Positions 23,249 through 45,257 are shown, counted from the first letter of the stretch. The stretch is 64,000 nt of DNA from an uncultured Chlamydiae bacterium (GCA_963754655.1 CAVWGN010000001.1:1376001-1440000); one strand, 5' to 3'. Numbers and translations: made by a program. Notes: generated by a model not told the origin, from the letters alone.

Positions 23249-24838
23249 TTAGCCATTGTCCTGAATGGCAGCCAAGACAATCTCTTGAATGGTTACATCT
23301 GCATATTGCAGAACCCTGCCATTTTGCTTAACGGCCGCCAAGACAATCTCTAGATCTTTTTTAAGGTTTTCAGCCGTAGATGCAAGAGCCAAACCACAGT
23401 CCTTAACAGCAGCCAAGACAATCTCTCGATCTTTTTTAAGACTTTCATCTGCATAGTGAAGAGCGATGCCAGTTTGCTGAACGGAAGCCAAGACAATCTC
23501 TCGATCTTTTGTAAGGCTTTCATCTGCATATTTAAGAGCCCGGCCATCTTGGTTAACGGCCGCCAAAACAATCTCTCGATCTTTTTTAAGGCTTTTACCT
23601 GCATAGCCAAGAGCATCGCCATCTTGCTGAACGGCTGCCAAAACAATCTCTCGATCTTTTCTAAGGCTTGCATCTGCATATTCAAGAGCCCAGCCAACTT
23701 GGTTAACAGCAGCCAAGACAATTTCTCGATCTTTTGTAAGGCTTTTATCTACAAATTGGAGAGCCTTGCCATTTTGCTGAACGGCAGCCAAGATAATCTC
23801 TCGATCATTTTTAAGACTTTTATCTGCATAGACAAGAGTATAACCATCTTGGTTAACGGCAGCTAAGACAATCTCTCGATCCTTTTTAAGGCTTGCATCT
23901 GCATAGAGAAGAGCCCAGCCAACTTGGTTAACAGCAGCCAAGACAATTTCTCGATCTTTTGTAAGGCTTTCATCTACAAATTGGAGAGCCTTGCCATTTT
24001 GCTGAACGGCAGCCAAGATAATCTCTCGATCATTTTTAAGACTTTTATCTGCATAGACAAGAGCATAACCATCTTGGTTAACGGCAGCTAAGACAATCTC
24101 TCGATCCTTTTTAAGGCTTTCATGTATATCAAAAACAGCATATCCAAAATAGCGCGCAACTTGAATAAAAATTTTTTTATCGTTAAAATTGGGAAACTTT
24201 TTAAGAGTAGACAGGAGAGATGTTTTTCCCTCGTGCCATCTTTGAGCTTGACCGGCAAAATAAAATCTTTCAATAAACTCATTTTTGATAACGGTTAATT
24301 TTTCTTCATCACTCCCTGATATAAGAAAATTTAAAATAGACAATTGATTTTCAGCAATCATCTGGATGCGTTGATTGGCGCTGTTTTTGCAAATTTCGGG
24401 TTTCCATATATAGCGATGCAAAAGAGAAAGAAATAAACTCTTTGAGTGAAATAATTCTGAATCAATCATCAATAATTTTTCAAATGTTCTTCTATCTTCA
24501 ATGGCTCGATCAATCAATTTAAGCTCTTTAGAAGTAAAATCCCTCTTTTGGTCTGTAACGATACACTCCTCAGGAGGCGTAATAGTGGGGAATCGATCAC
24601 TGTGTGTAATTTGAAAAAGAGTCTGCAATAATGAGATGCAAGGATTTGTCTGAAGAACCCTTTCCCATTTTTTACAGGTAAGTAAAATAGAAGAAATATT
24701 GCGTAAAGGTTGACTCTTTTGATTGACAATCTGATCAAAAATAATTCCTAATATTTCATTAGGCATTGTATTTAAGAAGAATTCGAATTCCTCTGAAGTG
24801 CTTTGCCTTGTTTGTGAATGAGAGTTAGTAATTTGCAT
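23249..24838 (-). CDS. F-box-like + DUF4116-type repeat protein (array 1, ~11 repeats)
   Basis: MPNEILGIIFDQI..ISSILLTCKKWERVL; repeat variants DGY,NGK,VGW,DGY,NGK,VGW,DGD,DGR,TGI,CGL,NGR. Confidence 0.9.
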   Translation of the reverse strand: MQITNSHSQTRQSTSEEFEFFLNTMPNEILGIIFDQIVNQKSQPLRNISSILLTCKKWERVLQTNPCISLLQTLFQITHSDRFPTITPPEECIVTDQKRDFTSKELKLIDRAIEDRRTFEKLLMIDSELFHSKSLFLSLLHRYIWKPEICKNSANQRIQMIAENQLSILNFLISGSDEEKLTVIKNEFIERFYFAGQAQRWHEGKTSLLSTLKKFPNFNDKKIFIQVARYFGYAVFDIHESLKKDREIVLAAVNQDGYALVYADKSLKNDREIILAAVQQNGKALQFVDESLTKDREIVLAAVNQVGWALLYADASLKKDREIVLAAVNQDGYTLVYADKSLKNDREIILAAVQQNGKALQFVDKSLTKDREIVLAAVNQVGWALEYADASLRKDREIVLAAVQQDGDALGYAGKSLKKDREIVLAAVNQDGRALKYADESLTKDREIVLASVQQTGIALHYADESLKKDREIVLAAVKDCGLALASTAENLKKDLEIVLAAVKQNGRVLQYADVTIQEIVLAAIQDNG

Positions 24839-25222
24839 AATTATCCTCTAATTTAATAATTTAATTTTAACATTTATTATAAATTTTTTAATAAATGGTT
24901 ATTATAACAAATGAAATAATTTATAAGGAGATTTATTTATTTATTTATTTTTGTTGCTGCTAATTAGAAATTGCTGCTTTTTTCCATTTAAACATGGTCA
25001 CTTTTGGAAATGAATCCATAGAACAGGAGGTTCTAGCTAGGGGAGGTTTAATAGAGATATGAAGCCTATCACTCATTTATTAACCCAAAAAGTGATCAAG
25101 CCAATTGTCAAAAAGGTGAGTGTGGTTAAATTCAAGGAATGAGAGAAAAACCCTGCCTAATGTTAGAATTATCCTCCTTTCGGTCAACTTGACCAAAAGG
25201 AGCCTAAGAAAAAATCGTAAGC

Positions 25223-26590
25223 TTAGCCATTGTCCTGAATGGCAGCCAAGACAATCTCTTGAATGGTTTCATGTGCATAAGGGAGAGTATCGACATTTTG
25301 CTTCACGGCGGCTAAGACAATTTGTAGATCTTTTTTAAAGATTCCATCTGCAAATTGAAGAGCATTGCCATGTTGCTGAACGGCAGCCAAGACAATCTCT
25401 CGATCTTTTTTAAGGCTTTTATCTACATATTGAAGAATCCAGCCATATTGCTGAACGGCAGCCAAGATAATCTCTCGATCTTTTTTAAGGCTTTCATCTG
25501 CATGTAGAAGAACAGTGCCATCTTGCTTAACGGCAGCCAAGACAATCTTTCGATCTTTTTTAAGGCTTTCATCTGCAAATTGAAGAGCTCTACCATCTTG
25601 CTGAACGGCAGCCAAGCCAATCTCTCGATCTTTTGTAAGGCTTTCATCTGCATATCGAAGAGCTGTGCCATATTGCTGAACAGCAGCCAAGACAATCTCT
25701 TTATCTTTTTTAAGTCTTTCATCTGCATATTCAAAAGCCAAGCCATTTTGCTGAACGGCAGCCAAGACAACCTCTCGATCTTTTTTAAGGCTTTCATCTG
25801 CAAAGTGAAGAGCTGAGCCACTTTGCTTAACGGCAGCCAAGACAATCTCTCGATCTTTTTTAAAGCCTTCATCTATATCAAAAACATCACCTCCGAAACA
25901 GCGAGCAACTTGAATAAAAACTTTTTTATCATCATTAAGATTGCGAAATTTTTTAAGAGTAGACAGGAGAGATGTTTTTCCCTCGTGCCATCTTTGAGCT
26001 TGACCGGCAAAATAAAATCTTTCAATAAACTCATTTTTGATAACAGTTAATTTTTCTTCATCACTCCCTGATATAAGAAAATTTAAAATAGACAATTGAT
26101 TTTCAGCAATCATCCGGATGCGCTGATTGGCGCTGTTTTTGCAAATTTCGGGTTCCCATATATAGCGATGTAAAAGAGAAAGAAATAAACTCTTTGAGTG
26201 AAATAATTCTGAATCAATCATCAATAATTTTTCAAATGTTCTTCTTTCTCCGATGGCTCGATCAATCAATTTAAGCTCTTGAGATGTAAAATCACTCTTT
26301 TGACCATTTGTGACGATACACTCTTGGGGAAGAGTAATAGTGAATCGATCACTGTGTGTCATTTTAAAAAAAGTCTGCAATAATGAGATGCAAGGATTTG
26401 TCTTAAGAATCCTTTCCCATTTTTTACAGGTGAGTAAAATAGAAGCAATATCGCGTAAAGGTTGACTCTTTTGATTGACAATCTGATCAAAAACAATTTC
26501 TAATATCTCATTAGGCATTGTATTTAAAGAGTATTCGAATTCCTCTGAAGTGCTTTGCTTTGTTTGTGAATGAAAGTCAGTAATCTGCAT
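25223..26590 (-). CDS. F-box-like + DUF4116-type repeat protein (array 1, ~8 repeats)
   Basis: Paralog; variants SGS,NGL,YGT,DGR,DGT,YGW,HGN,NVD. Confidence 0.9.
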   Translation of the reverse strand: MQITDFHSQTKQSTSEEFEYSLNTMPNEILEIVFDQIVNQKSQPLRDIASILLTCKKWERILKTNPCISLLQTFFKMTHSDRFTITLPQECIVTNGQKSDFTSQELKLIDRAIGERRTFEKLLMIDSELFHSKSLFLSLLHRYIWEPEICKNSANQRIRMIAENQLSILNFLISGSDEEKLTVIKNEFIERFYFAGQAQRWHEGKTSLLSTLKKFRNLNDDKKVFIQVARCFGGDVFDIDEGFKKDREIVLAAVKQSGSALHFADESLKKDREVVLAAVQQNGLAFEYADERLKKDKEIVLAAVQQYGTALRYADESLTKDREIGLAAVQQDGRALQFADESLKKDRKIVLAAVKQDGTVLLHADESLKKDREIILAAVQQYGWILQYVDKSLKKDREIVLAAVQQHGNALQFADGIFKKDLQIVLAAVKQNVDTLPYAHETIQEIVLAAIQDNG

Positions 26591-26941: not shown

Positions 26942-28384
26942 TTAGCCATTGTCCTGAATGGCAGCCAAGACAATCTCTTGAATGGTTTTGTGTACATAAG
27001 GGAGAGTATCGACATTTTGCTTCACGGCGGCTAAGACAATTTGTAGATCTTTTTTAAAGATTCCATCTGCAAATTGAAGAGCATTGCCATGTTGCTGAAC
27101 GGCAGCCAAGACAATCTCTCGATCTTTTTTAAGGCTTTTATCTACATATTGAAGAATCCAGCCATATTGCTTAACGGCAGCCAAGACAATCTTTCGATCT
27201 TTTGTAAGACTTTCATCTGCATATAAAAGAGCTGTGCCATCTTGCTTAACGGCAGCCAAGACAATCTTTCGATCTTTTTTAAGGCTTTCATCTGCAAATT
27301 GAAGAGTCCTACCATCTTGCTTAACGGCAGCCAAGCCAATCTCTCGATCTTTTGTAAGGCTTTTATCTACCAATTGAAGAGCTCTACTATCTTGCTGAAC
27401 GGCAGCCAAGACAATCTCTCGATCTTTTTTAAGGCTTTCATCTGCATATCGAAGAGCTGTGCCATATTGCTGAACGGCAGCCAAGACAGTGTCTGGGTCT
27501 TTTTTAAGGCTTTCATCTGCAAATTGAAGAAGCCAGCCATTTTGCTTAACGGCAGCCAAGACAATCTCTCGATCTTTTTTAAGGCTTTCATCTATATATT
27601 CAAGAGTCGTGCCATTTTTCTGAACGGCAGCCAAGACAATCTCTCGATCTTTTTTAAAGCCTTCATCTATATCAAAAACATCATCTCCGAAACAGCGAGC
27701 AACTTGAATAAAAACTTTTTTATCATCGTTAAGATTGCGAAATTTTTTAAGAGTAGACAGGAGAGATGTTTTTCCCTCGTGCCATCTTTGAGCTTGACCG
27801 GCAAAATAAAATCTTTCAATAAACTCATTTTTGATAACGGTTAATTTTTCTTCATCACTCCCTGATATAAGAAAATTTAAAATAGACAATTGATTTTCAG
27901 CAATCATCTGGATGCGTTGATTGGCGCTGTTTTTGCAAATTTCGGGTTCCCATATATAGCGATGCAAAAGAGAAAGAAATAAACTCTTTGAGTGAAATAA
28001 TTCTGAATCAATCATCAATAATTTTTCAAATGTTCTTCTTTCTCCAATGGCTCGATCAATCAATTTAAGCTCTTTAGAAGTAAAATCCCTCTTTTGGTCT
28101 GTAACGATACACTCCTCAGGAGGCGTAATAGTGGGGAATCGATCACTGTGTGTAATTTGAAAAAGAGTCTGCAATAATGAGATGCAAGGATTTGTCTGAA
28201 GAACCCTTTCCCATTTTTTACAGGTAAGTAAAATAGAAGAAATATTGCGTAAAGGTTGACTCTTTTGATTGACAATCTGATCAAAAATAATTCCTAATAT
28301 TTCATTAGGCATTGTATTTAAGAAGAATTCGAATTCCTCTGAAGTGCTTTGCCTTGTTTGTGAATGAAAGTTAGTAATTTGCAT
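26942..28384 (-). CDS. F-box-like + DUF4116-type repeat protein (array 1, ~9 repeats)
   Basis: Paralog; N-terminus near-identical to 23249..24838; variants NGT,NGW,YGT,DSR,DGR,DGT,YGW,HGN,NVD. Confidence 0.9.
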   Translation of the reverse strand: MQITNFHSQTRQSTSEEFEFFLNTMPNEILGIIFDQIVNQKSQPLRNISSILLTCKKWERVLQTNPCISLLQTLFQITHSDRFPTITPPEECIVTDQKRDFTSKELKLIDRAIGERRTFEKLLMIDSELFHSKSLFLSLLHRYIWEPEICKNSANQRIQMIAENQLSILNFLISGSDEEKLTVIKNEFIERFYFAGQAQRWHEGKTSLLSTLKKFRNLNDDKKVFIQVARCFGDDVFDIDEGFKKDREIVLAAVQKNGTTLEYIDESLKKDREIVLAAVKQNGWLLQFADESLKKDPDTVLAAVQQYGTALRYADESLKKDREIVLAAVQQDSRALQLVDKSLTKDREIGLAAVKQDGRTLQFADESLKKDRKIVLAAVKQDGTALLYADESLTKDRKIVLAAVKQYGWILQYVDKSLKKDREIVLAAVQQHGNALQFADGIFKKDLQIVLAAVKQNVDTLPYVHKTIQEIVLAAIQDNG

Positions 28385-28767: not shown

Positions 28768-30138
28768 TTAGCCATTGTCCTGAATGGCAGCCAAGACAAT
28801 CTCTTGAATGGTTTTGTGTACATAAGGGAGAGTATCGACATTTTGCTTCACGGCGGCTAAGACAATTTGTAGATCTTTTTTAAAGATTCCATCTGCAAAT
28901 TGAAGAGCATTGCCATGTTGCTGAACGGCAGCCAAGACAATCTCTCGATCTTTTTTAAGGCTTTTATCTACATATTGAAGAATCCAGCCATATTGCTTAA
29001 CGGCAGCCAAGATAATCTCTCGATCTTTTTTAAGGCTTTCATCTGCATGTAGAAGAACAGTGCCATCTTGCTTAACGGCAGCCAAGACAATCTTTCGATC
29101 TTTTTTAAGGCTTTCATCTGCAAATTGAAGAGCTCTACCATCTTGCTGAACGGCAGCCAAGCCAATCTCTCGATCTTTTGTAAGGCTTTCATCTGCATAT
29201 CGAAGAGCTGTGCCATATTGCTGAACGGCAGCCAAGACAATGTCTGGGTCTTTTTTAAAGCTTTCATCTACATATTGAAGAAGCCAGCCATTTTGCTTAA
29301 CGGCAGCCAAGACAATCTCTCGATCTTTTTTAAGGCTTTCATCTGCAAAGTGAAGAGCACTGCCATCATGTTGCTGAACGGCAGCCAAGACAATCTCTCG
29401 ATCTTTTTTAAAGCCTTCATCTATATCAAAAACATCATCTCCGAAACAGCGAGCAACTTGAATAAAAACTTTTTTATCATCGTTAAGATTGCGAAATTTT
29501 TTAAGAATAGACAGGAGAGATGTTTTTCCCTCGTGCCATCTTTGAGCTTGACCGGCAAAATAAAATCTTTCAATAAACTCATTTTTGATAACGGTTAATT
29601 TTTCTTCATCACTCCCTGATAGAAGAGAATTTAAAATAGACAATTGATTTTCAGCAATCATCCGGATGCGCTGATTGGCGCTGTTTTTGCAAATTTCGGG
29701 TTCCCATATATAGCGATGTAAAAGAGAAAGAAATAAACTCTTTGAGTGAAATAATTCTGAATCAATCATCAATAATTTTTCAAATGTTCTTCTTTCTCCG
29801 ATGGCTCGATCAATCAATTTAAGCTCTTGAGATGTAAAATCACTCTTTTGACCATTTGTGACGATACACTCTTGGGGAAGAGTAATAGTGAATCGATCAC
29901 TGTGTGTCATTTTAAAAAAAGTCTGCAATAATGAGATGCAAGGATTTGTCTGAAGAACCCTTTCCCATTTTTTACAGGTGAGTAAAATAGAAGCAATATC
30001 GCGTAAAGGTTGACTCTTTTGATTGACAATCTGATCAAAAATAATTCCTAATATTTCATTAGGCATTGTATTTAAGGAGAATTCGAATTCCTCTGAAGTA
30101 CTTTGCATTGTTTGTGAATGAAAGTCAGTAATTTGCAT
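28768..30138 (-). CDS. F-box-like + DUF4116-type repeat protein (array 1, ~8 repeats)
   Basis: Paralog; variants HDGS,NGW,YGT,DGR,DGT,YGW,HGN,NVD. Confidence 0.9.
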   Translation of the reverse strand: MQITDFHSQTMQSTSEEFEFSLNTMPNEILGIIFDQIVNQKSQPLRDIASILLTCKKWERVLQTNPCISLLQTFFKMTHSDRFTITLPQECIVTNGQKSDFTSQELKLIDRAIGERRTFEKLLMIDSELFHSKSLFLSLLHRYIWEPEICKNSANQRIRMIAENQLSILNSLLSGSDEEKLTVIKNEFIERFYFAGQAQRWHEGKTSLLSILKKFRNLNDDKKVFIQVARCFGDDVFDIDEGFKKDREIVLAAVQQHDGSALHFADESLKKDREIVLAAVKQNGWLLQYVDESFKKDPDIVLAAVQQYGTALRYADESLTKDREIGLAAVQQDGRALQFADESLKKDRKIVLAAVKQDGTVLLHADESLKKDREIILAAVKQYGWILQYVDKSLKKDREIVLAAVQQHGNALQFADGIFKKDLQIVLAAVKQNVDTLPYVHKTIQEIVLAAIQDNG

Positions 30139-30465: not shown

Positions 30466-30494
30466 CTCCTTTCGGTCAACTTGACCGAAAGGAG
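30466..30494 (-). terminator. Hairpin just downstream of array-1 genes (representative copy)
   Basis: CTCCTTTCGGTCAA-C-TTGACCGAAAGGAG; variants lie ~20 nt after the stop of nearly every array-1 gene; no strong U tract. Confidence 0.55.
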
Positions 30495-30513: not shown

Positions 30514-31800
30514 TTAGCCATTTTCCTGAATGGCAGCCAAGACAATCTCTTGAATGGTTTTATGTGCATAGCGAAGAGCATCGGCATTTTGCTTAACGGC
30601 AGTCAAAACAATGTGTAGATCTTTTTTAAAGCTTTCATCTGCAAATGCGAGAGCCAAGCCACGTTGCTTAACGGCCGCCAAGACAATATCTTGATCTTTT
30701 TTAAGGATTTCATCTACATATTGAAGAGCATAGCCATTTTGCTGAACAGCAGCCAAGACAATCTCTCGATTTTTTTTTAGACTCTTATCTGCATGTAGAA
30801 AAGCCAAGCTATCTTGCTGAACGGCAGCCAAGACAATCTTTCGATCTTTTTTAAGGATTTCATCTGCCAATTGAAGAGCATTGCTATTTTCTTGAATGGC
30901 AGCCAAGACAATCTCTCGATCTTTTTTAAGGCTTTTATCTGCAAATTTAAGAACATAGCCAGTTTGCTGAACGGCAGCCAAGACAATCTCTCGATCTTTT
31001 TTAAGGCTTTCATCTGCATATTCAAGAGTCATGCCATTTTTCTGAACGGCAGCCAAGACAATCTCTCGATCTTTTTTAAAGCCTTCATCTATATCAAAAA
31101 CAGAAGCTCCGAAACAGCGAGCAACTTGAATTAAAATTTTTTTATCGTTAAGATTGCGAAATTTTTTAAGAGTAGAGATGATAGGTGTTTGTACATCGTG
31201 TAATCTTTGATTTTGAGCTCCTATATAAAACTTTTCGATAAAGTCATTTTTGATAATCGTTAACTTTTCTTCATCACTCCCTGATATAAGAGAGTTTAAA
31301 AGAGACAATTGATTTTCAGCAATCAGCTTGATGCGTTGATTGGCGCTGTTTTTGCAAACTTTAGGCTTCCATTTATAGCGATCCAAAAGAGAAAGAAATA
31401 AACTCTTTGATTGAAATAATTCTGAATCCATCACTAACAATTTTTCAAATGTTTTTCTTTCTCTAATGGCTCGATCAATTAATTTAAGTTCCTTAGATGT
31501 AAAATCCCTCTTTTGATCTGTGACGATACACTCTGGGGGAGGCGTAATAGTGAATCGATCACTGTGTGCAATTTGAAAAAGAGTCTGCAATAATGAGATG
31601 CAAGGATTTGCCTTAAGAACCCTTTCCCATTTTTTACAGGTAAGTAAAATAGAAGAAATATCATGTAAAGGCCGGTTCTTTTGATTGACAATCTGATCAA
31701 AAACAATGCCTAATATCTCATTAGGCATTGTATTTAAGAAGCATTCGAATTCCTCCGAATTGCTTTGCATTGTTTGTAAATTAAAACTAGTAATTTGCAT
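30514..31800 (-). CDS. F-box-like + DUF4116-type repeat protein (array 1, ~7 repeats)
   Basis: Paralog; variants NGM,TGY,NSN,DSL,NGY,RGL,NAD. Confidence 0.9.
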   Translation of the reverse strand: MQITSFNLQTMQSNSEEFECFLNTMPNEILGIVFDQIVNQKNRPLHDISSILLTCKKWERVLKANPCISLLQTLFQIAHSDRFTITPPPECIVTDQKRDFTSKELKLIDRAIRERKTFEKLLVMDSELFQSKSLFLSLLDRYKWKPKVCKNSANQRIKLIAENQLSLLNSLISGSDEEKLTIIKNDFIEKFYIGAQNQRLHDVQTPIISTLKKFRNLNDKKILIQVARCFGASVFDIDEGFKKDREIVLAAVQKNGMTLEYADESLKKDREIVLAAVQQTGYVLKFADKSLKKDREIVLAAIQENSNALQLADEILKKDRKIVLAAVQQDSLAFLHADKSLKKNREIVLAAVQQNGYALQYVDEILKKDQDIVLAAVKQRGLALAFADESFKKDLHIVLTAVKQNADALRYAHKTIQEIVLAAIQENG

Positions 31801-32176: not shown

Positions 32177-33319
32177 TTAGCCATTTTCCTGAATGGCAGC
32201 CAGAATAATCTCTTGAATGGTTTCATCTGCACATTGAAGAGCCCACCAGCCGCCTTGCTTAAAAGCAGCCAAAACAATCTGTATGTCTTTTTTAAGATTT
32301 TCATCTGCATACTGAAGAGCCATGCCATATTGTTTAACGGCAGCCAAGACAATCTCTCGATCTTTTTTAAGGGTTTCATCTGCATATTGAAGAGTATTGC
32401 CATCTTCCTGAACGGCAGCCAAGACAATCTCTCGATTTTGCTTTAGGGCTTCATCTGCAAATTGAAGAGCATAGCTATCTGCCTGAACAGCAGCCAAGAC
32501 AATTTCTTGATCTTTTTTAAGGCTTTGATCTGCATATTGAAGAGCCCAGCCACTTGGCTGAACGGCCGCCAAGACAATTTCTCGATCTTTTTTAAAGCTT
32601 TCATCTATATCAAAAACAGAAGCTCCAAAACAGCGAGCAACTTGAATAAAAACTTTTTTATTATTAAGATTACGAAATTTTTTGAGAGTAGAGATGACAG
32701 CTGTTTGTACCTCGTACCATCTTGGATCTTGAGCGCCAGAATAAAATTTTTCGATAAAGTCATTGTTGATAATAGTTAATTTTTCTTCATCACTGCCTGA
32801 TATAAGCGAATTTAAAATAGACAATTGATTTTCAGCAATCATCTTGATGCGTTTATTGATGCTATTTTTGCAAATTTTAGGGTTCCATATATAGCGATAC
32901 AAAAGAGAAAGAAATAAACTCTTGGATTGAAATAATGTTGAATCAATCATCAATAATTTTTCAAATGTTGTTGTTTCTCTGAGGGCTCGATCAATTAATT
33001 TAAGTTCCTTAGATGTAAAATTCTTCTTCTGATCTGTTGCAATACACTCTGAGGGAGGCATAATAGTGAATCGATCACTGTATTTAATTTGAAAAAGAGT
33101 TTGCAATAATGAGATACAAGGATTTGTCTTAAGAATCCTTTCCCATTTTTTACAGGTGAGTAAAATAGAAGAAATATCGCGTAAAGGTTGACTCTTTTGA
33201 TTGACAATTTGATCAAAAATAATTCCTAATATTTCATTAGGAATTAATATTTCTAAAAAACTTTGGAATTCCTCTGCAGTGTTTCGCATTGTTTGTGAAT
33301 AAAAGTTAGTAGTTTTCAT
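32177..33319 (-). CDS. F-box-like + DUF4116-type repeat protein (array 1, ~5 repeats)
   Basis: Paralog; variants SGW,DSY,DGN,YGM,GGWW. Confidence 0.9.
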   Translation of the reverse strand: MKTTNFYSQTMRNTAEEFQSFLEILIPNEILGIIFDQIVNQKSQPLRDISSILLTCKKWERILKTNPCISLLQTLFQIKYSDRFTIMPPSECIATDQKKNFTSKELKLIDRALRETTTFEKLLMIDSTLFQSKSLFLSLLYRYIWNPKICKNSINKRIKMIAENQLSILNSLISGSDEEKLTIINNDFIEKFYSGAQDPRWYEVQTAVISTLKKFRNLNNKKVFIQVARCFGASVFDIDESFKKDREIVLAAVQPSGWALQYADQSLKKDQEIVLAAVQADSYALQFADEALKQNREIVLAAVQEDGNTLQYADETLKKDREIVLAAVKQYGMALQYADENLKKDIQIVLAAFKQGGWWALQCADETIQEIILAAIQENG

Positions 33320-34176: not shown

Positions 34177-35832
34177 TTAGCCATTTTCCTGAATAGCAGC
34201 CAAGACAATGTCTCGAATGGTTTCGTGTACATAGGAAAGAACACGGTCAGTTTGCTTAACGGCCGTCAAAACAATTTGTAAATCTTTTTTAAAGCTTTCA
34301 TCTGCAGCTGCAAGAGCCCAACCACAGTCCTTAACGGCAGCCAAGACAATCTCTCGATCTTTTTTAAAGATTTCATCTGCAAAGTGAAGAGCTATGCCAC
34401 ATTGCTTAACGGCAGCCAAGACAATCTCTCGATCTTTTTGAAGGCTTTCATGTGCATATTGAAGAGCCCTGCCATCTTGCTGAATGGCAGCTAAGACAAT
34501 GTCACGATCTTTTGTAAAGCTTTCATCCGCATATTTAAGAGCTGTGCCGTAGCACTGAACGGCAGTCAAAACAATCTGTAGAGCTTTTTTAAGACTTTCA
34601 TCTGCCAATTTAAGAGCTAAGCCATTTTGCTGAACGGCCGCTAAGACAATCTCTCGATCTTTTTTAAGGCTTTCATCTGCATATTGAAGAGCATAGCCAT
34701 CTTGCTGAACGGCCGCCAAGACAATCTCTTGGTTTTTTTTAAGGCTTTCATCTGCATATTGAAGAGCATAGCCATTTTGCTGAACGGCCGCCAAGACAAT
34801 TTCTCGATCTTTTTTAAGGCTTTCATCTGCATATTGAAGAGCATAGCCATCTTGCTGAACGGCCGCCAAGACAATCTCTTGGTTTTTTTTAAGGCTTTCA
34901 TCTGCATATTGAAGAGCATAGCCATTTTGCTGAACGGCCGCCAAGACAATCTCTCGATCTTTTTTAAGGCTTTCATCTGCATATTGAAGAGCTTGGAGAC
35001 TAGCCAAGAACATTTCTTGATCTTTTTCAAAGCTTTCACCTGCATATGCAAGAAACCGGACCTTTTGCTGAACGGCAGCCAAGACAATCTCTCGATCTTT
35101 TTTAAAGCTTTCATCTATATCAAAAACAGAAGCTCCGAAACAGCGAGCAACTTGAATAAAAACTTTTTTATCATCGTTAAGATTGCGAAATTTTTTAAGA
35201 GTAGAGACAACAGATTTTTTTATGTCGTAATCTCTTAGATATTTACCGCCCAAATAAAATTTTTCGATAAAGTCATTTTTGATAACGGTTAATTTTTCTT
35301 CATCACTCCCTGATAGAAGAGAATTTAAAATAGACAATTGATTTTCAGCAATCATCTTGATGCGTTGATTGGCGCTGTTTTTGCAAACTTCAGGGTTCCA
35401 TAGATAGTGATGTAAAAGAGAAAGAAATAAACTCTCTGATTGAAATAATTCTGAATTTATCATCAACAATTTTTCAAATGTTTTTCTGCTTCTGATGACT
35501 TGATCAATCAAATTAAGCTCTTGAGATGTAAAATCACTCTTTTGACCATTTATGACGATACACTCCCGGGGAAGAGTAATGGTGAATCGATCACTGTGTG
35601 TCATTTTAAAAAAAGTCTGCAATAATGAGATGCAAGGATTTGTCTGAAGAACCCTTTCCCATTTTTTACAGGTGAGTAAAATAGAAGAAATATCGCGTAA
35701 AGGCTGGCTCTTTTGATTGACAACCTGATCAAAAATAATTTCTAATATCTCATTAGGCATTGTATTTAAGAAGAATTCGAATTCCTCTGAAGTACTTTGC
35801 TTTGTTTGTGAATGAAAGTTAGTAATTTGCAT
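34177..35832 (-). CDS. F-box-like + DUF4116-type repeat protein (array 1, ~12 repeats)
   Basis: Paralog; includes a recent two-repeat tandem duplication (NGY,DGY x2) and an atypical KVRF/short unit. Confidence 0.9.
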   Translation of the reverse strand: MQITNFHSQTKQSTSEEFEFFLNTMPNEILEIIFDQVVNQKSQPLRDISSILLTCKKWERVLQTNPCISLLQTFFKMTHSDRFTITLPRECIVINGQKSDFTSQELNLIDQVIRSRKTFEKLLMINSELFQSESLFLSLLHHYLWNPEVCKNSANQRIKMIAENQLSILNSLLSGSDEEKLTVIKNDFIEKFYLGGKYLRDYDIKKSVVSTLKKFRNLNDDKKVFIQVARCFGASVFDIDESFKKDREIVLAAVQQKVRFLAYAGESFEKDQEMFLASLQALQYADESLKKDREIVLAAVQQNGYALQYADESLKKNQEIVLAAVQQDGYALQYADESLKKDREIVLAAVQQNGYALQYADESLKKNQEIVLAAVQQDGYALQYADESLKKDREIVLAAVQQNGLALKLADESLKKALQIVLTAVQCYGTALKYADESFTKDRDIVLAAIQQDGRALQYAHESLQKDREIVLAAVKQCGIALHFADEIFKKDREIVLAAVKDCGWALAAADESFKKDLQIVLTAVKQTDRVLSYVHETIRDIVLAAIQENG

Positions 35833-36185: not shown

Positions 36186-37751
36186 TTAGCCATTTTCCTG
36201 AATGGCAGCCAAAACAATCTTTTGAATGGTTTTATCTGCATAGCGAAGAGCATCGGCCTTTTGCTTAACGGCAGCCAAAACAATCTATAGATCTTTTTTA
36301 AGGGTTTCATCTGCATATTCAAGATTCCCGCCATTCTTCTTAACGGCCGCTAAGACAATTTCTCGATCTTTTTTAAGGGTTTCATCTGCAAATTGAAGAT
36401 TAAAGCCTTTTTTCTGAACGGCCGCCAAGACAATCTCTTGAATGGTTTCATCTACATAGCGAAGAGCTCTACCATTTTACTGAACAGCAGCCAAGACAAT
36501 CTGTAGATCTTTTTTAAGGCTTTCATGTGCATATTGAAGAGCATGGCCATTTTTCTGAACGGCAGCTAAGACAATCTTTTGATCTTTTTGAAGGTTTACA
36601 TCTGCATATTTAAGAGATATGCCCTGTTGCTGAACGGCTGCCAAGACAATGTCACGATCTTTTTTAAGGGTTTCATCCGCGTAGAGAAGAGCAGTGCCAT
36701 TTTGCTGAACGGCCGCCAAGACAATCTCTCGATCTTTTTTAAGGCTTTCATCTGCATATTGAAGAGCATAGCCATTTTGCTGAACGGCCGCCAAGACAAT
36801 CTCTGGATCCTTTTTAAGGCTTTTATCTGCATATTGAAGAGCATAGCCATTGTGCTGAACGGCCGCCAAGACAACCTCTCGATCTTTTTTAATGCTTTCA
36901 TCTGCAAATTGAAGAGCTTGGAGGCTAGCCAAGACCATCTCTTTTTCAAAGCTTTGACTTGCACATGCAAGAAACCGGACCTTTTGCTGAACGGCAGCCA
37001 AGACAATCTCCCGATCTTTTTTAAAGTCTTCATCTATATCAAAAACAGAAGCTCCGAAACAGCGCGCAACTTGAATAAAAACTTTTTTATCATCGTTAAG
37101 ATTGCGAAATTTTTTAAGAGTAGAGATGACAGATGTTTTTACGTAGTACCCGCTTGGATATTTAGCGCTCAAATAAAATTTTTCGATAAAGTCATTTTTG
37201 ATAATGGTTAATTTTTCTTCATCGCTCCCTGATAGAAGAGAATTTAAAATAGACAATTGATTTTCAGCAATCATCTTGATGCGTTGATTGGCGCTGTTTT
37301 TGCAAACTTCAGGCTCCCATAGATAGTGATGTAAAAGAGAAAGAAATAAACTCTCTGATTGAAATAATTCTGAATTTATCATTAACAATTTTTCAAATGT
37401 TTTTCTTTCTCTGATGACTTGATCAATCAAATTAAGCTCTTGAGATGTAAAATCACTCTTTTGACCATTTGTGACGATACACTCCCGAGGAAGAGTAATA
37501 GTGAATCGATCACTGTGTGTCATTTTAAAAAAAGTCTGCAATAATGAGATGAAAGGATTTGTCTGAAGAACACTTTCCCATTTTTTACAGGTAAGTAAAA
37601 TAGAAGAAATATCGCTTAAAGACTAGCTCTTTTGATTGACAATCTGATCAAAAATAATTTTTAATATTTCATTAGGCATTGTATTTAAGAAGAATTCGAA
37701 TTCCTCTGAAGTGCTTTGCTTTGTTTGTGAATGAAAGTTAGTAATTTGCAT
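36186..37751 (-). pseudogene. F-box-like + DUF4116-type repeat pseudogene, three in-frame nonsense codons
   Basis: Frame intact from ATG 37751 to TAA 36186 (1566 nt) except TAG 37623-37625, TAA 36477-36479 and TAG 36285-36287, each where paralogs have CAG/CAA. Confidence 0.88.
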
Positions 37752-38124: not shown

Positions 38125-39645
38125 TTAGCCATTTTCCTGAATGGCAGCCAAGACAATCTCTTGAATGGTTTCATGTGCATAAGGGAGAGTATCGACATTT
38201 TGCTTCACGGCGGCTAAGACAATTTGTAGATCTTTTTTAAAGCCTTCATCTGCAAATGCGAGAGCCAAGCCAAACTGCTTGACGGCAGCTAAGACAATTG
38301 CTCGATCTTTTTTAAGAGTTTCATCTACATATTGAAGAGCATAGCCATTTTGATGAACTGCAGCCAAGACAATCTCTCGATCTTTTTTAAGGCTTTCATC
38401 TGCATATTCAAGGGCCCAGCCATCTTGTTGAACGGCCGCCAAAACAATCTCTCGATCTTTTTTAAGGCTTTCATCCGCATATCGAAGAGCTATTCCAGTT
38501 TGCTTAATAGCAGCCAAAGCAATCTCTCGATCTTTTTTAAGGCTTTTATCTGCATATTGAAGAGCATAGCCATCTTGCTGAACGGCAGCCAAGACAATCT
38601 CTCGATCTTTTTTAAGGCTTTCATCTGCATATTCAAGGGCCCAGCCATCTTGTTGAACGGCAGCCAAGACAATCTCTCGATCTTTTTTAAGGGTTTCATC
38701 TGCATATTTAAGAGCCCAGCCATTTTGCTGAACCGCAACCAAGACAATCTCTCGATCTTTTTTAAGGGTTTCATCTGCATATTGAAGAGCCCAGCCATTT
38801 TGCTGAACCGCAATTAAGACAATCTCTCGATCTTTTTTAAGGGTTTCATCTACCAATTTAAGAGCTAAGCCTTCTTGCTTAACGGCAGCCAAAACAATTT
38901 CTCGATCTTTTTTTAAGCTTTCATGTATATCAAAAATGGAAGCTCCGAAACAGCGAGCAACTTGAATAAATTTTTTTTTATCGTTAAGGTTGAGGAATTT
39001 TTTAAGAGTAGAGATGATAGATGTGTGTATATCATGTAATCTTTGATGGTGCGCGCCCGAATAAAATTTTTCGATAAGGTCATTTTGAATAACGGTTAAT
39101 TTTTCTTCATCACTCCCTGATAGAAGAGAATTTAAAATAGACAATTGATTTTCAGCAATCATCTTGATGCGTTGATTGGCGCTGTTTTTGCAAACTTCAG
39201 GGTTCCATGAATGGCGATCCAAAAGAGAAAGAAATAAACTCTTTGGGTGAAATAATGCTGAATCCATCATCAACAATTTTTCAAATGCTGTTATTTCTCT
39301 ACAGGCTGGATCAATCAATTTAAGTTCCTTAGATGTAAAATCCTTCTTTTGGCTTTGGTTTGTCGCGATACACTCTTGAGGAGGCGTAATAGTAGTGAAT
39401 CGATCACTGTGTGTAATTTGAAAAAGAGTCTGCAATAATGAAATGCAAGGATTTGCTTTAAGAATCCCTTCCCACCTTTTACAGGTAAGTAAAATAGAAG
39501 AAATATCGACTAAAGGCTGTCTTTGTTGATTGACAATCTGATCAAAAATAATATCCAATATCTCATTAGGTATTATATTTGAAAATAATTGGAATTCCTC
39601 CGAAGTGCTTTGCCTTATGTGTGAATGAAAGTTAGTAATTTGCAT
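38125..39645 (-). CDS. F-box-like + DUF4116-type repeat protein (array 1, ~10 repeats)
   Basis: Paralog; variants EGL,NGW,NGW,DGW,DGY,TGI,DGW,NGY,FGL,NVD. Confidence 0.9.
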   Translation of the reverse strand: MQITNFHSHIRQSTSEEFQLFSNIIPNEILDIIFDQIVNQQRQPLVDISSILLTCKRWEGILKANPCISLLQTLFQITHSDRFTTITPPQECIATNQSQKKDFTSKELKLIDPACREITAFEKLLMMDSALFHPKSLFLSLLDRHSWNPEVCKNSANQRIKMIAENQLSILNSLLSGSDEEKLTVIQNDLIEKFYSGAHHQRLHDIHTSIISTLKKFLNLNDKKKFIQVARCFGASIFDIHESLKKDREIVLAAVKQEGLALKLVDETLKKDREIVLIAVQQNGWALQYADETLKKDREIVLVAVQQNGWALKYADETLKKDREIVLAAVQQDGWALEYADESLKKDREIVLAAVQQDGYALQYADKSLKKDREIALAAIKQTGIALRYADESLKKDREIVLAAVQQDGWALEYADESLKKDREIVLAAVHQNGYALQYVDETLKKDRAIVLAAVKQFGLALAFADEGFKKDLQIVLAAVKQNVDTLPYAHETIQEIVLAAIQENG

Positions 39646-40020: not shown

Positions 40021-41391
40021 TTAGCCATTTTCCTGAATAGCAGCCAAGACAATCTCTTGAATGGTTTCATCTGCATAGCGAAGAGCGTCGCCTCGTTGCT
40101 GAACGGCAGCCAAGACAATCTCTCGATCTTTTTTAAAGCTTTCATCTACATACATAAGAGCCCAGCCATTTTGCTTAACGGCAGCTAAGACAATCTCTCG
40201 ATCTTTTTTAAAGCTTTCATCTGCAAATTGAAGAGCCCAGCCATTTTTCTTAACGGCAGCCAAGACAATCTCTCGATCTTTTTTAAAAGGTTTATCTGCA
40301 TGTTGAAGAACACTGCCATGTTGCTGAACAGCAGCCAAGACAATCTCTCGATCTTTTTGAAGGCTTTCATGTGCATATTGAAGAGCATAGCCTCTTTGCT
40401 GAACGGCAGCCAAGACAATCTCTCGATCTTTTTTAAGGGTTTCATCTGCATATTCAAGGGCCCAGCCATCTTGCTGAACGGCAGCCAAGACAATCTCTCG
40501 ATCTTTTTTAAGGGTTTCATCTGCATATTGAAGAGCATAGCCACTTTGCTGAACCGCAACCAAGACAATCTCTCGATCTTTTTTAAGGGTTTCATCTACC
40601 AATTTAAGAGCTAAGCCTTCTTGCTTAACGGCAGCCAAAACAATTTCTCGATCTTTTTTAAAGCTTTCATGTATTCCAAAAATGGAAGCTCCGAAACAGC
40701 GAGCAACTTGAATAAAAACTTTTTTATCGTTAAGGTTGAGGAATTTTTTAAGAGTAGAGATGATAGATGTGTGTATATCATATAATCTTTGATGGTGCGT
40801 GCCCGAATAAAATTTTTCGATAAGGTCATTTTGAATAACGGTTAATTTTTCTTCATCACTCCCTGATAGAAGAGAATTTAAAATAGACAATTGATTTTCA
40901 GCAATCATCTTGATGCGTTGATTGGCGCTGTTTTTGCAAACTTCAGGGTTCCATGAATGGCGATCCAAAAGAGAAAGAAATAAACTCTTTGGGTGAAATA
41001 ATGCTGAATCCATCATCAACAATTTTTCAAATGCTGTTATTTCTCTACAGGCTGGATCAATCAATTTAAGTTCCTTAGATGTAAAATCCTTCTTTTGGCT
41101 TTGGTTTGTCGCGATACACTCTTGAGGAGGCGTAATAGTAGTGAATCGATCACTGTGTGTAATTTGAAAAAGAGTCTGCAATAATGAAATGCAAGGATTT
41201 GCTTTAAGAATCCCTTCCCACCTTTTACAGGTAAGTAAAATAGAAGAAATATCGCCTAAAGGCTGTCTTTGTTGATTGACAATCTGATCAAAAATAATAT
41301 CCAATATCTCATTAGGTATTATATTTGAAAATAATTGGAATTCCTCCGAAGTGCTTTGCCTTGTGTGTGAATGAAAGTTAGTAATTTGCAT
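40021..41391 (-). CDS. F-box-like + DUF4116-type repeat protein (array 1, ~8 repeats)
   Basis: Paralog; variants EGL,SGY,DGW,RGY,HGS,NGW,NGW,RGD. Confidence 0.9.
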   Translation of the reverse strand: MQITNFHSHTRQSTSEEFQLFSNIIPNEILDIIFDQIVNQQRQPLGDISSILLTCKRWEGILKANPCISLLQTLFQITHSDRFTTITPPQECIATNQSQKKDFTSKELKLIDPACREITAFEKLLMMDSALFHPKSLFLSLLDRHSWNPEVCKNSANQRIKMIAENQLSILNSLLSGSDEEKLTVIQNDLIEKFYSGTHHQRLYDIHTSIISTLKKFLNLNDKKVFIQVARCFGASIFGIHESFKKDREIVLAAVKQEGLALKLVDETLKKDREIVLVAVQQSGYALQYADETLKKDREIVLAAVQQDGWALEYADETLKKDREIVLAAVQQRGYALQYAHESLQKDREIVLAAVQQHGSVLQHADKPFKKDREIVLAAVKKNGWALQFADESFKKDREIVLAAVKQNGWALMYVDESFKKDREIVLAAVQQRGDALRYADETIQEIVLAAIQENG

Positions 41392-41765: not shown

Positions 41766-43132
41766 TTAGCCATTTTCCTGAATGGCAGCCAAGACAATCT
41801 CTTGAATGGTTTCATGTGCATAAGGGAGAGTATCGACATTTTGCTTCACGGCGGCTAAGACAATTTGTAGATCTTTTTTAAAGCCTTCATCTGCAAATGC
41901 GAGAGCCAAGCCAAACTGCTTGACGGCAGCTAAGACAATCGCTCGATCTTTTTAAGAGTTTCATCTGCAAATTGAAGAGCATTGCCATGTTGCTGAACGG
42001 CAGCCAAGACAATCTCTCGATCTTTTTTAAGGCTTTCATCTGCAAATTGAAGAGCATAGCCATGTTGCTTAACGGCAGCCAAAACAATCTCTCGATCTTT
42101 TTTAAAGCCTTCATCTGCAAATGCGAGAGCCAAGCCAAACTGCTTAACGGCAGCTAAGACAATCGCTCGATCTTTTTTAAGAGTTTCATCTACATATCGA
42201 AGAGCATAGCCATTTTGATGAACTGCAGCCAAGACAATCTCTCGATCTTTTTTAAGGCTTTCATCTGCAAATTGAAGAGCATAGCCATGTTGCTTAACGG
42301 CAGCCAAAACAATTTCTCGATCTTTTTTAAGGCTTTCATCCGCATATCGAAGAGCTATTCCATTTTTCTGAACGGCAGCCAAGACAATCTCTCGATCTTT
42401 TTTAAAGCCTTCATCTATATCAAAAACAGAAGCTCCGAAATAGCGAGCAACTTGAATAAAAATTTTTTTATCATCGTTAAGATTGCGAAATTTTTTAAGA
42501 GTAGACAGGAGAGATGTTTTTCCCTCGTGCCATCTTTGAGCTTGACCGGCAAAATAAAATCTTTCAATAAACTCATTTTTGATAACGGTTAATTTTTCTT
42601 CATCACTCCCTGATATAAGAGAATTTAAAATAGACAATTGATTTTCAGCAATCATCCGGATGCGCTGATTGGCGCTGTTTTTGCAAATTTCGGGTTTCCA
42701 TATATAGCGATGCAAAAGAGAAAGAAATAAACTCTTTGAGTGAAATAATTCTGAATCAATCATCAATAATTTTTCAAATGTTCTTCTTTCTCCGATGGCT
42801 CGATCAATCAATTTAAGCTCTTGAGATGTAAAATCACTCTTTTGACCATTTGTGACGATACACTCTGGGGGAGGCGTAATAGTGAATCGATCACTGTGTG
42901 TCATTTTAAAAAAAGTCTGCAATAATGAGATGAAAGGATTTGTCTGAAGAACACTTTCCCATTTTTTACAGGTAAATAAAATAGAAGAAATATCGCTTAA
43001 AGACTGGCTCTTTTGATAGACAATCTGATCAAAAATAATTTTTAATATTTCATTAGGCATTGTATTTAAGAAGAATTCGAATTCCTCTGAAGTGCTTTGC
43101 CTTGTTTGTGAATGAAAGTTAGTAATTTGCAT
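41766..43132 (-). pseudogene. F-box-like + DUF4116-type repeat gene with a 1-nt deletion near the 3' end
   Basis: T5 instead of T6 at 41949-41953; ORF stops at 41930 while the normal ..LAAIQENG* end lies at 41766; could be a sequencing error. Confidence 0.8.
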
Positions 43133-43505
43133 AATTGTCCTTTAATTTAATAATTTAATTTTAATAGCTATTATCAATTTTTTAATAAATACATATGATA
43201 ACAAATAAATTAATTTAGAAGGAGATTTATTTATTTTTGTTGCTGCTAATTAGAAATTGCTGTTTTTTCCATTTAAAAATGATCACTTTTGGAAATGAAT
43301 CCCTAGAATAGGAGGTTCTAACTAGGGGAGGTTTAATAGAGATATGAAGCCTATCACTCATTTATTAACCCAAAAAGCGATCAAGCCAAATGTCAAAAAG
43401 TGAGCATGGTAAATTCAAGGAATAAAAGAAAAACGCTGTATGATGTTAGAATTATCCTCCTTTCGGTCAACTTGAACAAAAGGAGTCTAAGAAAAAATCG
43501 TAAGC

Positions 43506-43860
43506 TTAGCCATTTTCCTGAATAGCAGCCAAGACAATCTCTTGAATGGTTTCATCTGCATAGCGAAGAGCGTCGCCTAGTTGCTGAACGGCTGCCAAGA
43601 CAATCTCTAGATCTTTTCTAAGGTTTTCATCTGCAAATTGAAGAGCATTGCCATGTTGCTGAACAGCAGCTAAGACAATCTCTCGATCTTTTTTAAAGCT
43701 TTCATCTGCATATTCAAGAAAATAGCCCTCTTTCTGAACGGCAGCCAAGACAAGCTCTCGATCTTTTTTAAGGCTTTCATCTGCAAATCGAAAAGCCAAG
43801 CCCTCTTTCTGAACAGCAGTCAAGACAACCTCTTTATCTTTTAAGGCTTTCATCTGCAAA
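43506..43860 (-). pseudogene. Orphan 3' fragment (last ~4.5 repeats) of an array gene
   Basis: Repeats join directly to the half-deleted hairpin of the upstream gene at CAAA|AGGAG (43857-43865); also a T4 for T6 at ~43840. Confidence 0.85.
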
Positions 43861-43883
43861 AGGAGCCTAACAAAATCGTAAGT

Positions 43884-45257
43884 TTAGCCATTATCCTGAA
43901 TGGCAGCCCAGACAATGTCTTGAATGGTTGCATGTGCATAGAAAAAAGCATGGCTATTTTGCTTAACAGCAGCCAAAACAATCTGTAGATCTTTTTTAAG
44001 GGATTCATCTGCCTGGTTAAGAGTCAAGCCATTTTTCTGAACAGCAGCTAAGACAATGTCTCGATCTTTTTTAAGGCTTTCATCTGCATATTCAAGAGCC
44101 CAGCCATTTTCCTTAACGGCAGCCAAGACAATCTCTCGATCTTTTTTAAGGGGTTTATCTGCATGTTGAAGAACACTGCCATGTTGCTGAACAGCAGCTA
44201 AGACAATCTCTCGATCTTGTTTAAGGCTTTCATCTGCATATTCAAGAGCCCAGCCACTTTCCTTAACGGCAGCCAAGACAATCTCTCGATCTTTTTTAAA
44301 GATTCCATCTGCAAATTGAAGAGCATTGCAATGTTGCTGAACGGCAGCCAAGACAATCTCTCGATCTTGTTTAAGGCTTTCATCTGCATATTCAAGAGCA
44401 CTGCCATCATGTTGCTGAACGGCAGCCAAGACAATCTCTCGATCTTGTTTAAGGCTTTCATCTGCATATTCAAGAGCCCAGCCATGTTGCTTAACGGCAA
44501 CCAAAACAATTTCTCGATCTTTTTTAAGGCTTTCATGTATATCAAAAATGGAAGCTCCGAAACAGCGAGCAACTTGAATAAAAATTTTTTTATCGTTAAG
44601 GTTGAGGAATTTTTTAAGAGTAGAGATGATAGATGTGTGTATACCATATAATCTTTGATGGTGCGCGCCCAAGTAAAATTTTTCGATAAGGTCATTTTGA
44701 ATAACGGTTAATTTTTCTTCATCACTCCCTGATATAAGAGAATTTAAAATAGACAATTGATTTTCAGCAATCATCTTGATGCGTTGATTGGCGCTGTTTT
44801 TGCAAACTTCAGGGTTCCATGAATGGCGATCCAAAAGAGAAAGAAATAAACTCTTTGGGTGAAATAATGCTGAATCCATCATCAACAATTTTTCAAATGC
44901 TGTTATTTCTCTACAGGCTGGATCAATCAATTTAAGTTCCTTAGATGTAAAATCCTTCTTTTGGCTTTGGTTTGTCGCGATACACTCTTGAGGAGGCGTA
45001 ATAGTAGTGAATCGATCACTGTGTGTAATTTGAAAAAGAGTCTGCAATAATGAAATGCAAGGATTTGCTTTAAGAATCCCTTCCCACCTTTTACAGGTAA
45101 GTAAAATAGAAGAAATATCGCCTAAAGGCTGTCTTTGTTGATTGACAATCTGATCAAAAATAATATCCAATATCTCATTAGGTATTATATTTGAAAATAA
45201 TTGGAATTCCTCCGAAGTGCTTTGCCTTGTGTGTGAATGAAAGTTAGTAATTTGCAT
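43884..45257 (-). CDS. F-box-like + DUF4116-type repeat protein (first gene of array 1, ~8 repeats)
   Basis: Paralog; variants HGW,HDGS,HCN,SGW,HGS,NGW,NGL,NSH. Confidence 0.9.
   Translation of the reverse strand: MQITNFHSHTRQSTSEEFQLFSNIIPNEILDIIFDQIVNQQRQPLGDISSILLTCKRWEGILKANPCISLLQTLFQITHSDRFTTITPPQECIATNQSQKKDFTSKELKLIDPACREITAFEKLLMMDSALFHPKSLFLSLLDRHSWNPEVCKNSANQRIKMIAENQLSILNSLISGSDEEKLTVIQNDLIEKFYLGAHHQRLYGIHTSIISTLKKFLNLNDKKIFIQVARCFGASIFDIHESLKKDREIVLVAVKQHGWALEYADESLKQDREIVLAAVQQHDGSALEYADESLKQDREIVLAAVQQHCNALQFADGIFKKDREIVLAAVKESGWALEYADESLKQDREIVLAAVQQHGSVLQHADKPLKKDREIVLAAVKENGWALEYADESLKKDRDIVLAAVQKNGLTLNQADESLKKDLQIVLAAVKQNSHAFFYAHATIQDIVWAAIQDNG

Follow-up and report, generated by a model that had tools for sequence, protein, structure and literature searches.

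A tandem family of F-box-like DUF4116 proteins with three hypervariable repeat positions in an uncultured chlamydial genome

The DNA analysed here is a 64,000-nucleotide (nt) stretch from an uncultured Chlamydiae bacterium (GCA_963754655.1, CAVWGN010000001.1:1376001-1440000), hereafter the window. Its interval 23249-45257 holds 12 paralogous open reading frames (ORFs), all on the minus strand in the ORF listing. The family reaches past this interval, with six further genes at 45931-61082, one of them on the plus strand, and an outlier at 3189-4238; for the whole window we count 18 paralogous genes plus fragments, spanning 3189-61082 (Table 1). An intact member consists of an N-terminal module of about 240 amino acids (aa), a tandem array of 25-aa repeats, and then either a C-terminal cap (C-cap) or a hydrophobic tail, which replaces the C-cap in the five genes at 50663-61082 that make up a second subfamily. 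The module opens with an F-box-like motif, I/L-P-N-E-I-L-x-I-I-F-D ... I-L-L-T-C-K-K-W. The repeat is the Pfam domain DUF4116, present in 5 to 18 units per protein, and Tandem Repeats Finder reported a 75-nt period in every gene. The tail of the second subfamily is conserved and hydrophobic, of the type L-A-L-R-I-E-L-A-L-T-S-L-L-Q-T-P-K-N-Y ... W-H-L, and may serve as a membrane anchor or as a capping helix; the other members carry a ETIQEIVLAAIQENG-type cap.

Table 1. Members and remnants of the F-box-like/DUF4116 family in the window
Coordinates	Strand	Feature	Basis
3189..4238	-	Outlier, 349 aa, 19 kb upstream of the cluster; N-domain of the same type, a few degenerate repeats	
23249..24838	-	F-box-like + DUF4116 gene, 529 aa; 10 in-register units and C-cap; chimera	ORF, Pfam, comparison
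25223..26590	-	Member, 455 aa	ORF listing
26942..28384	-	Member, 480 aa	ORF listing
28768..30138	-	Member, 456 aa; one-residue insertion (HDGS) in first unit	
30514..31800	-	Member, 428 aa	ORF listing
32177..33319	-	Member, 380 aa; last full unit bears an insertion (GGWW)	
34177..35832	-	Member, 551 aa	ORF listing
36288..37751	-	Broken member; in-frame stops in F-box-like segment (one) and array (one); ORF 36477-37541 is the middle piece	
38125..39645	-	Member, 506 aa	ORF, Pfam
40021..41391	-	Member, 456 aa; AlphaFold2 model made from its product	
41769..43132	-	Frame-changed member; ORF 41930-43132 stops early, rest of array and C-cap in another frame at 41769-41951	
43509..43883	-	Headless remnant; repeats and C-cap without N-domain, directly past the stop codon of the upstream gene	
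43884..45257	-	Member, 457 aa	ORF listing
45931..47265	+	Opposite-strand member, 444 aa	ORF, Pfam
50663..52069	-	Second-subfamily member, 468 aa; other N-domain subtype, hydrophobic C-terminal tail	
52286..53764	-	Second-subfamily member, 492 aa	
54913..56244	-	Second-subfamily member, 443 aa	
56461..58098	-	Second-subfamily member, 545 aa; three-residue insertion (VGWGWE)	
59670..61082	-	Second-subfamily member, 470 aa	

The assignment of the repeat to DUF4116 (PF13475) is clear in all four proteins scanned, which scored 282-491 bits over 5-9 matched stretches against a gathering cut-off of 24.9 bits. Units were anchored on an IVLAAV-like core, giving 161 units in the 18 window genes; the 124 that lie exactly 25 aa apart were kept, and the remaining 37, terminal or off-length, were dropped. 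The anchor expression lowers entropy at positions 11-16 only. A genome-wide set of 631 in-register units was drawn from 113 ORF segments. The consensus of the window units (n=124) is ADESLKKDREIVLAAVQQ-x-G-x-AL-x-Y, in which the three open sites X1, X2 and X3 fall at positions 19, 21 and 24. An earlier note on this DNA had described three fixed hypervariable positions in a near-constant scaffold, and the per-site entropies bear this out: variability is concentrated at position 19 (3.02 bits, 13 residue types), position 21 (3.30 bits, 15 types) and position 24 (2.77 bits, 14 types), and the next-highest value is 1.55 bits at position 25. The same pattern appears among the 631 genome-wide units, with 2.86, 3.78 and 2.86 bits at the three sites and 1.67 bits at the next. 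Among the 75 nucleotides of the unit, the five most diverse (codon, then position within it) are 21.2, 21.3, 21.1, 24.1 and 19.1, with heterozygosities of 0.64-0.69; the mean diversity of scaffold third positions is 0.19.

The three sites differ in how they vary. X2 is often aromatic, as the earlier note had remarked: it is W or Y in 51 of the 124 window units, and genome-wide an aromatic residue (W, Y, F or H) occupies it in 30% of units, the commonest residues being W, Y, L and R. Such residues are typical of protein interfaces. X3 is rich in Q, E and K genome-wide, mostly through a one-nucleotide toggle among CAA, GAA and AAA (409 of 631 units). X1 likewise toggles mostly at one nucleotide, with NAT codons (D, N, Y or H) in 459 of 631 units, and X2 alone varies at all three codon positions, using 52 codons. 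Departures from the 25-aa register are rare. Anchors are spaced by exactly 25 aa in 635 cases genome-wide, and 12 of the 13 insertions sit between positions 18 and 23. The earlier note had assigned HDGS, GGWW and VGWGWE to one loop, and all three were found. Insertions and deletions were counted by anchor spacing and pairwise alignment, the count based on the hidden Markov model (HMM) being uninformative as it splits the units that bear them; apparent "deletions" ahead of the C-cap are an artefact of the shorter cap unit.

Substitution rates at the three codons were compared with those of the scaffold, all rate tests being Nei-Gojobori counts. Over all unit pairs, the three codons have a non-synonymous rate (dN) of 0.94 in the window and 0.90 in the genome; relative to the synonymous rate (dS) of the scaffold, 0.19 and 0.28 respectively, this amounts to ratios of 4.99 and 3.21. 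Because picking similar pairs biases dS downward, a split-half test was used in which one half of the scaffold codons, drawn at random, served to pair the units and the remaining half to measure the rates (20 replicates); the nearest-neighbour ratio was 5.2 (range 3.2-7.6) in the window and 3.2 (2.2-4.4) in the genome. In a third scheme, units from different genes were paired by the identity of both flanking units, each unit being used once, and 95% intervals were obtained by bootstrap. The ratio of the non-synonymous proportion (pN) at the three codons to the synonymous proportion (pS) of the scaffold was then 2.44 (2.14-2.82; 124 pairs) at a flank identity of at least 84%, 2.48 (2.03-3.04; 69 pairs) at 88%, 2.65 (1.56-4.80; 28 pairs) at 92%, 2.96 (1.23-6.72; 16 pairs) at 94% and 5.66 (1.50-14.4; 10 pairs) at 96%. 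By all three pairing schemes, non-synonymous change at the three codons outpaces synonymous change in the scaffold, 2.4- to 5-fold. A within-codon control, whose positions share one genealogy, gave first-position diversities of 0.64 at codon 19 and 0.65 at codon 24, compared with 0.25 and 0.39 at the third positions. The scaffold itself has a dN/dS ratio (omega) of 0.69 in the window and 0.57 in the genome. The N-domains are under moderate purifying selection, with a median dN/dS of 0.53, a median dS of 0.51 and none of 91 pairs above 1.

The product of 40021-41391 (456 aa) was modelled by AlphaFold2, the input including 45 rows of paralogues or relatives. The mean predicted local distance difference test score (pLDDT) was 82.5, with ten-residue blocks at 91-98 across the array and 71-89 at the C-terminal cap. 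According to the DSSP string of the model, each unit has three short helices, A (positions 3-7), B (9-18) and C (20-25), and the units are predicted to stack into an alpha-solenoid, a fold that the text of Bassot and Elofsson 2021 (PMC8078820) also predicts for DUF4116. Position 19 is the single non-helical linker (N-cap) residue between helices B and C, and positions 21 and 24 are the second and fifth residues of helix C. Three residues apart, the latter two would be separated by about 60 degrees on the helix and, because of helix periodicity, would share a face, with the invariant A22 and L23 facing the opposite way. In the model, sites 19, 21 and 24 would therefore lie together on one side of helix C and should align from unit to unit as a continuous variable stripe. 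The earlier note had placed the variable residues on one face of a solenoid; what stands of this is the fixed register and, as modelled, a position within six residues on the turn and one side of the third helix.

Comparisons with solved structures gave little. A PDB sequence search with the whole protein returned chance-level rows only (E 0.2 or worse), and Foldseek with the full-length model found no PDB match at E <=0.001. A full-library structural alignment (VIA) placed designed armadillo repeat proteins at the top (4rv1, Z 7.2; 6sa7, Z 6.8; 6s9p, Z 6.1), at root-mean-square deviations of 7.7-10.8, and ankyrin/DARPin chains at Z about 4-5.6; values below 8 are in the common-arrangement range on the tool's own scale. 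No solved structure resembles the DUF4116 array convincingly.

The N-terminal module shows a resemblance to F-box domains. Against the Pfam F-box-like model, 8 of 14 N-domains gave a match (best E 0.0022), the first member scoring 13.4 bits where the cut-off is 24.3; against the Pfam F-box model, 6 of 14 did so (best E 0.013). Because all N-domain scores lie below the Pfam cut-off, we term the motif F-box-like and do not count it as a confirmed F-box member. The nearest ESM Atlas clusters to the N-domain are F-box proteins, at 0.84, a value that on the tool's own scale amounts to no more than a lead. Pfam-significant F-boxes are fused to DUF4116 in two same-order relatives (L012 and L013) and in protein P0059, and these fusions back the F-box-like reading by analogy. 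The earlier note had argued that a protein ligand fits the F-box, and both the F-box-like N-terminus and the fusions in relatives agree with this. When the N-domain alignment was compared with P0059 by hhalign, one column was aligned, with 0.1% probability. The approximately 170 residues between the motif and the repeats are without known relative, and the whole N-domain matches just 20 clusters among 1.84 billion representatives, mostly proteins of this genome or fragments.

The genome consists of 3.12 Mb and a second contig of 35 kb (3.16 Mb in total) and is 96.7% complete. The family accounts for 113 ORF segments, 1,090 unit hits and 151,766 bases, or 4.80% of the genome; 93 segments are at least 300 aa long and lie in 10 clusters, that of the window being the largest. 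The gene content includes four TLC nucleotide transporters and a single FHIPEP gene for an export gate, and the closest named relatives of TrxB come from a Parachlamydiaceae metagenome-assembled genome (80%) and from Candidatus Protochlamydia phocaeensis (76%). The best reading is that the organism is an obligate intracellular, amoeba-associated Parachlamydiaceae bacterium. Within its own genome the N-domain is matched 70 times, but no match was found in any of 40 relatives, of which 3 share its genus, 21 its family and 16 its order; of 63 hits from a pattern scan of contigs based on the N-domain alignment, tblastn confirmed none. The family is lineage-restricted. DUF4116 itself occurs in 17 of the 40 relatives, with independent expansions in some. 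A search of sequencing runs listed one soil DNA run with 0.20 of the words, and no RNA run.

Variability was also compared among DUF4116 units from elsewhere. In relatives, units were taken by anchor extraction (25-108 each), the unit HMM having given few complete units (8-37). Each of the four relatives sampled has its highest variability at position 21. At the sampled loci of G004 and G011, positions 19 and 24 both come within the first four; G020 has position 19 in third place and 24 in seventh, and in G009 position 24 is second and 19 falls outside the top eight. Among 228 units from 50 foreign proteins, position 21 is again the most variable, and positions 3, 17 and 18 are about equal to 19 and 24. 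The sharp three-site contrast seen here is partly due to the young, homogeneous scaffold of this genome. The closest named eukaryotic DUF4116 relatives come from Naegleria (P0064, P0069, P0079, P0108 and P0109), several of them kinase-fused, and may offer a clue to where the repeat came from or to the range of hosts.

The arrays themselves are mobile between genes. The gene at 23249-24838 is 98-100% identical to that at 26942-28384 across its first 600 nt, and from about nt 700 to 900, in its first repeats, it is 100% identical to a gene of the other N-domain subtype 27 kb away (50663-52069). It is a chimera, and arrays have therefore been exchanged between genes. In most arrays a 225-nt period beats the 75-nt period (87% versus 78% identity at 23296-24123; also at 41837-42417), which suggests that arrays grow by three-unit blocks. 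The copies at 36288-37751, 41769-43132 and 43509-43883 are decaying and are signs of birth-and-death turnover.

We regard it as fairly probable that these genes encode secreted mimics of Skp1-cullin-F-box (SCF) substrate receptors whose protein-binding stripe is diversifying, and that the family is a variant, built on DUF4116, of the known chlamydial F-box/repeat expansions. The proteins would be exported by type III secretion into the amoeba host, where the F-box-like motif would dock onto the host Skp1/cullin ligase. The variable stripe would be the substrate-recognition surface, different in each paralogue, and its mode of binding would be like that of ankyrin, leucine-rich repeat (LRR) or armadillo binders, not a per-repeat code. 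The sequence shows diversification proceeding in three ways: by substitutions focused on the three codons, by gain and loss of units, often in three-unit blocks, and by recombination that swaps arrays between N-domain subtypes, with the broken copies pointing to birth-and-death turnover.

A number of observations weigh against this interpretation. We infer secretion, Skp1 binding, the protein ligand and surface exposure from sequence and predicted structure, the exposure of the three sites in particular from the DSSP string and helix periodicity. None of the 14 N-domains reaches the Pfam F-box cut-off (PF00646 / PF12937), and the helices predicted in the F-box segment (27-38, 46-54 and 56/59-64) have pLDDT values of about 50-60. 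Foldseek with the N-domain model found no PDB match at E <=0.001, and a search of PDB sequences with the N-domain profile brought up chance-level rows, such as an APC armadillo at E ~0.5, but no F-box chain. X1 is D, N, S or T in about 70% of units. These are favoured helix N-cap residues, and X1 is therefore in part structural. Positions 3 and 4 rival 19 and 24 in the four sampled relatives. The rates come from counting methods, not from recombination-aware site models, and the homology of units is uncertain in a recombining array. In the tightest flank-matched set (identity of at least 98%; 8 pairs) the pN/pS ratio of 3.44 (0-14.9) is not significant, and a scaffold omega of about 0.6-0.8, together with the broken copies, fits substantial drift.

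These last points lead to an alternative that we consider rather unlikely, namely that no ligand drives the variation: the three sites would be the least constrained surface positions of a repeat that spreads and decays through genomic drift, and the apparent excess would be an artefact of concerted evolution and of uncertain unit homology. The scaffold omega of 0.57-0.69, the broken and headless copies in the window, the absence of the N-domain family from three genomes of the same genus, the one-nucleotide toggling of X1 and X3, and the loss of significance in the tightest set are all consistent with it, and Domman et al. 2014 (PMC4209131), in their main text, found no positive selection in analogous families and argued for drift. 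However, relaxation alone should give a ratio of about 1, and the observed values are 2.4-5, with the bootstrap excluding 1 at five of six flank thresholds. Codons 19 and 24 are far more diverse at the first position than at the third on the same genealogy, as given above. Other polar scaffold residues that are presumably exposed (K6, K7, D8, R9 and E10) stay conserved, and position 21 remains the most variable in all four relatives as well as in the 228 units of 50 foreign proteins.

Quite unlikely, in our view, is a modular solenoid that reads a polymer, in which each unit would recognise one or two monomers of a linear ligand through its triplet, the ordered string spelling the target; the ligand would be an extended peptide, as for designed armadillo repeat proteins or importin-alpha, or a nucleic acid, as for PUF, PPR or TALE proteins. 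It draws on a highly regular register, with rare insertions and deletions confined to the variable turn, on three variable sites that the model fixes on the third helix of a three-helix unit, and on the designed armadillo repeat proteins that are the top structural matches, weak as these are (Z 6.1-7.2) and within the common arrangement. The abundance of W, Y and R at X2 and of Q, E and K at X3 is reminiscent of PUF repeats with their stacking and edge-contact residues. Nevertheless, the 631 units contain 317 distinct X1/X2/X3 triplets, near the approximately 367 expected if the sites were independent, and the four commonest (DRQ, NWQ, NYQ and DLE) make up just 65 of the 631, so no small alphabet is apparent. 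Mutual information between X1, X2 and X3 is small and is confounded by shared ancestry. The mean net charge of -0.53 per unit (genome-wide, n=631) is unfavourable for nucleic acid, and the Pfam models for TAL, PPR, PUF and armadillo (ARM) repeats gave no hit at E <=0.01 in the four proteins scanned. Among flank-matched pairs with an identical scaffold, none of four differs at the variable sites, and the hallmark of TALE repeats, near-identity outside the code residues, is therefore absent. The TALE/PPR-style code proposed in the earlier note is not borne out by these results in its strict sense, with each repeat reading a single monomer by means of a small alphabet, and a nucleic-acid code is unlikely. 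The triplet string differs for every window gene, and the recent duplicates at 25223, 26942 and 28768 have part of theirs in common (YTR-DRQ-DTL-YWQ-HNQ). A variable protein-binding stripe is the best reading of these data.

We give a slim chance to a version of the modular reader with a peptide ligand: DUF4116 arrays would be natural peptide readers, the triplet on helix C of each unit contacting one or two residues in an extended peptide of the host, as in engineered armadillo repeat proteins. Were this true, the genome would offer about 1,000 natural reading modules, recombined into about 100 ligase adaptors, and a recognition table could be worked out from them. Targeted hypermutation of the variable codons, for example by a diversity-generating retroelement, agrees with the limitation of variation to a few codons of an otherwise homogeneous repeat and is nonetheless so improbable that it can be set aside, the retroelement being rejected because no reverse transcriptase (PF00078) was matched in this 96.7%-complete genome by a search that was positive in 3 of 14 control genomes, while some 1,090 units in about 100 genes and 10 clusters do not fit a template/variable-repeat pair and the variable nucleotides are not confined to adenines.

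The closest known systems to the SCF-receptor mimics proposed here are families described by Domman et al. 2014 (PMC4209131) in Neochlamydia and Protochlamydia, which combine F-box or RING with LRR, F-box with tetratricopeptide repeats (TPR), and BTB with LRR. Their text presents these as the largest families in chlamydiae, arranged in tandem arrays, evolving by birth and death and carrying functional type III signals, with a global dN/dS of 0.29-0.63 and positive selection not detected. Like NEX1, NEX2 and PEX1 in that paper, the present family belongs to the Parachlamydiaceae, joins an N-terminal ubiquitin-ligase adaptor motif (here F-box-like only) to C-terminal tandem repeats, and comprises dozens to more than 100 paralogues in tandem arrays, whose copy number differs widely between close relatives in a birth-and-death manner. 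As these families are described there, the repeat here differs in being DUF4116 rather than LRR or TPR, the N-domain forms a narrow family of its own, as its 20 clusters indicate, and there is a site-specific non-synonymous excess, whereas the text of PMC4209131 reports no positive selection. A type III signal was demonstrated for NEX/PEX and is putative in the present family, in whose genome one FHIPEP gene was identified. A literature search combining F-box, Parachlamydiaceae and diversifying selection yielded only Domman et al. 2014 as relevant.

Other DUF4116 proteins, from Naegleria, giant viruses, Legionella and other bacteria, share the HMM family, the alpha-solenoid predicted in the text of PMC8078820 and the maximal variability of position 21. 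Their scaffold is far less uniform, however, and positions 3, 17 and 18 vary in them as 19 and 24 do; the precomputed Pfam column shows fusions to kinases, BRCT, serpin, ankyrin (ANK) and F-box domains. PDB sequence and literature searches found no function or solved structure for any DUF4116 member, and a literature search on DUF4116/PF13475 found no study in chlamydiae or on variable positions. With ankyrin/DARPin, LRR and armadillo binders, which serve as ubiquitin-ligase substrate receptors and bacterial effectors, the arrays have in common short helical repeats on a conserved framework, with a few variable sites that would form one surface. The DUF4116 unit, with three predicted helices in 25 aa, is shorter than ANK (33 aa) or ARM (42 aa), and there is no sequence match and no significant fold match (Foldseek, E <=0.001) to these binders; the fold resemblance of the model to ankyrin and armadillo proteins is weak (Z 5-7), and binding here is putative. 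TALE, PPR and PUF proteins similarly consist of fixed-length tandem helical repeats with two or three variable positions at fixed sites, but they differ from the present family in their small recurrent alphabet, in the lack of an HMM relation and in their nucleic-acid effector domains. The units here are acidic, and they are fused to an F-box-like module. Unlike those of TALE proteins, the scaffolds here are not near-identical where the variable sites differ.

With about 1,090 copies on a near-constant scaffold, the family pinpoints likely binding residues, which change faster than silent sites. This provides a first functional handle on DUF4116, and since the domain is widespread in protists, giant viruses and intracellular bacteria, the variable-stripe binder is a testable hypothesis for all of them. 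With this family, the chlamydial mass production of mimics of ubiquitin-ligase adaptors would extend to a new type of repeat, and a natural scaffold as short as 25 aa could be attractive for the design of binding proteins; the family reveals no new nucleic-acid code and no new principle.

The cluster is flanked by housekeeping genes (BamA, RecR, FabH/D/G, PutP and TrxB) and by insertion sequences (IS). Two large ORFs lie beside it, at 19262-22075 (minus strand, 937 aa) and at 4486-5862 (minus strand, 458 aa), the latter in a stretch of 26.5% GC; an NCBIfam match was not found for either. An IS256-family transposase at 14265-15467 and an IS607 transposase with a TnpB gene at 61396-62806, all on the plus strand, flank the cluster, and these elements may contribute to its rearrangement.

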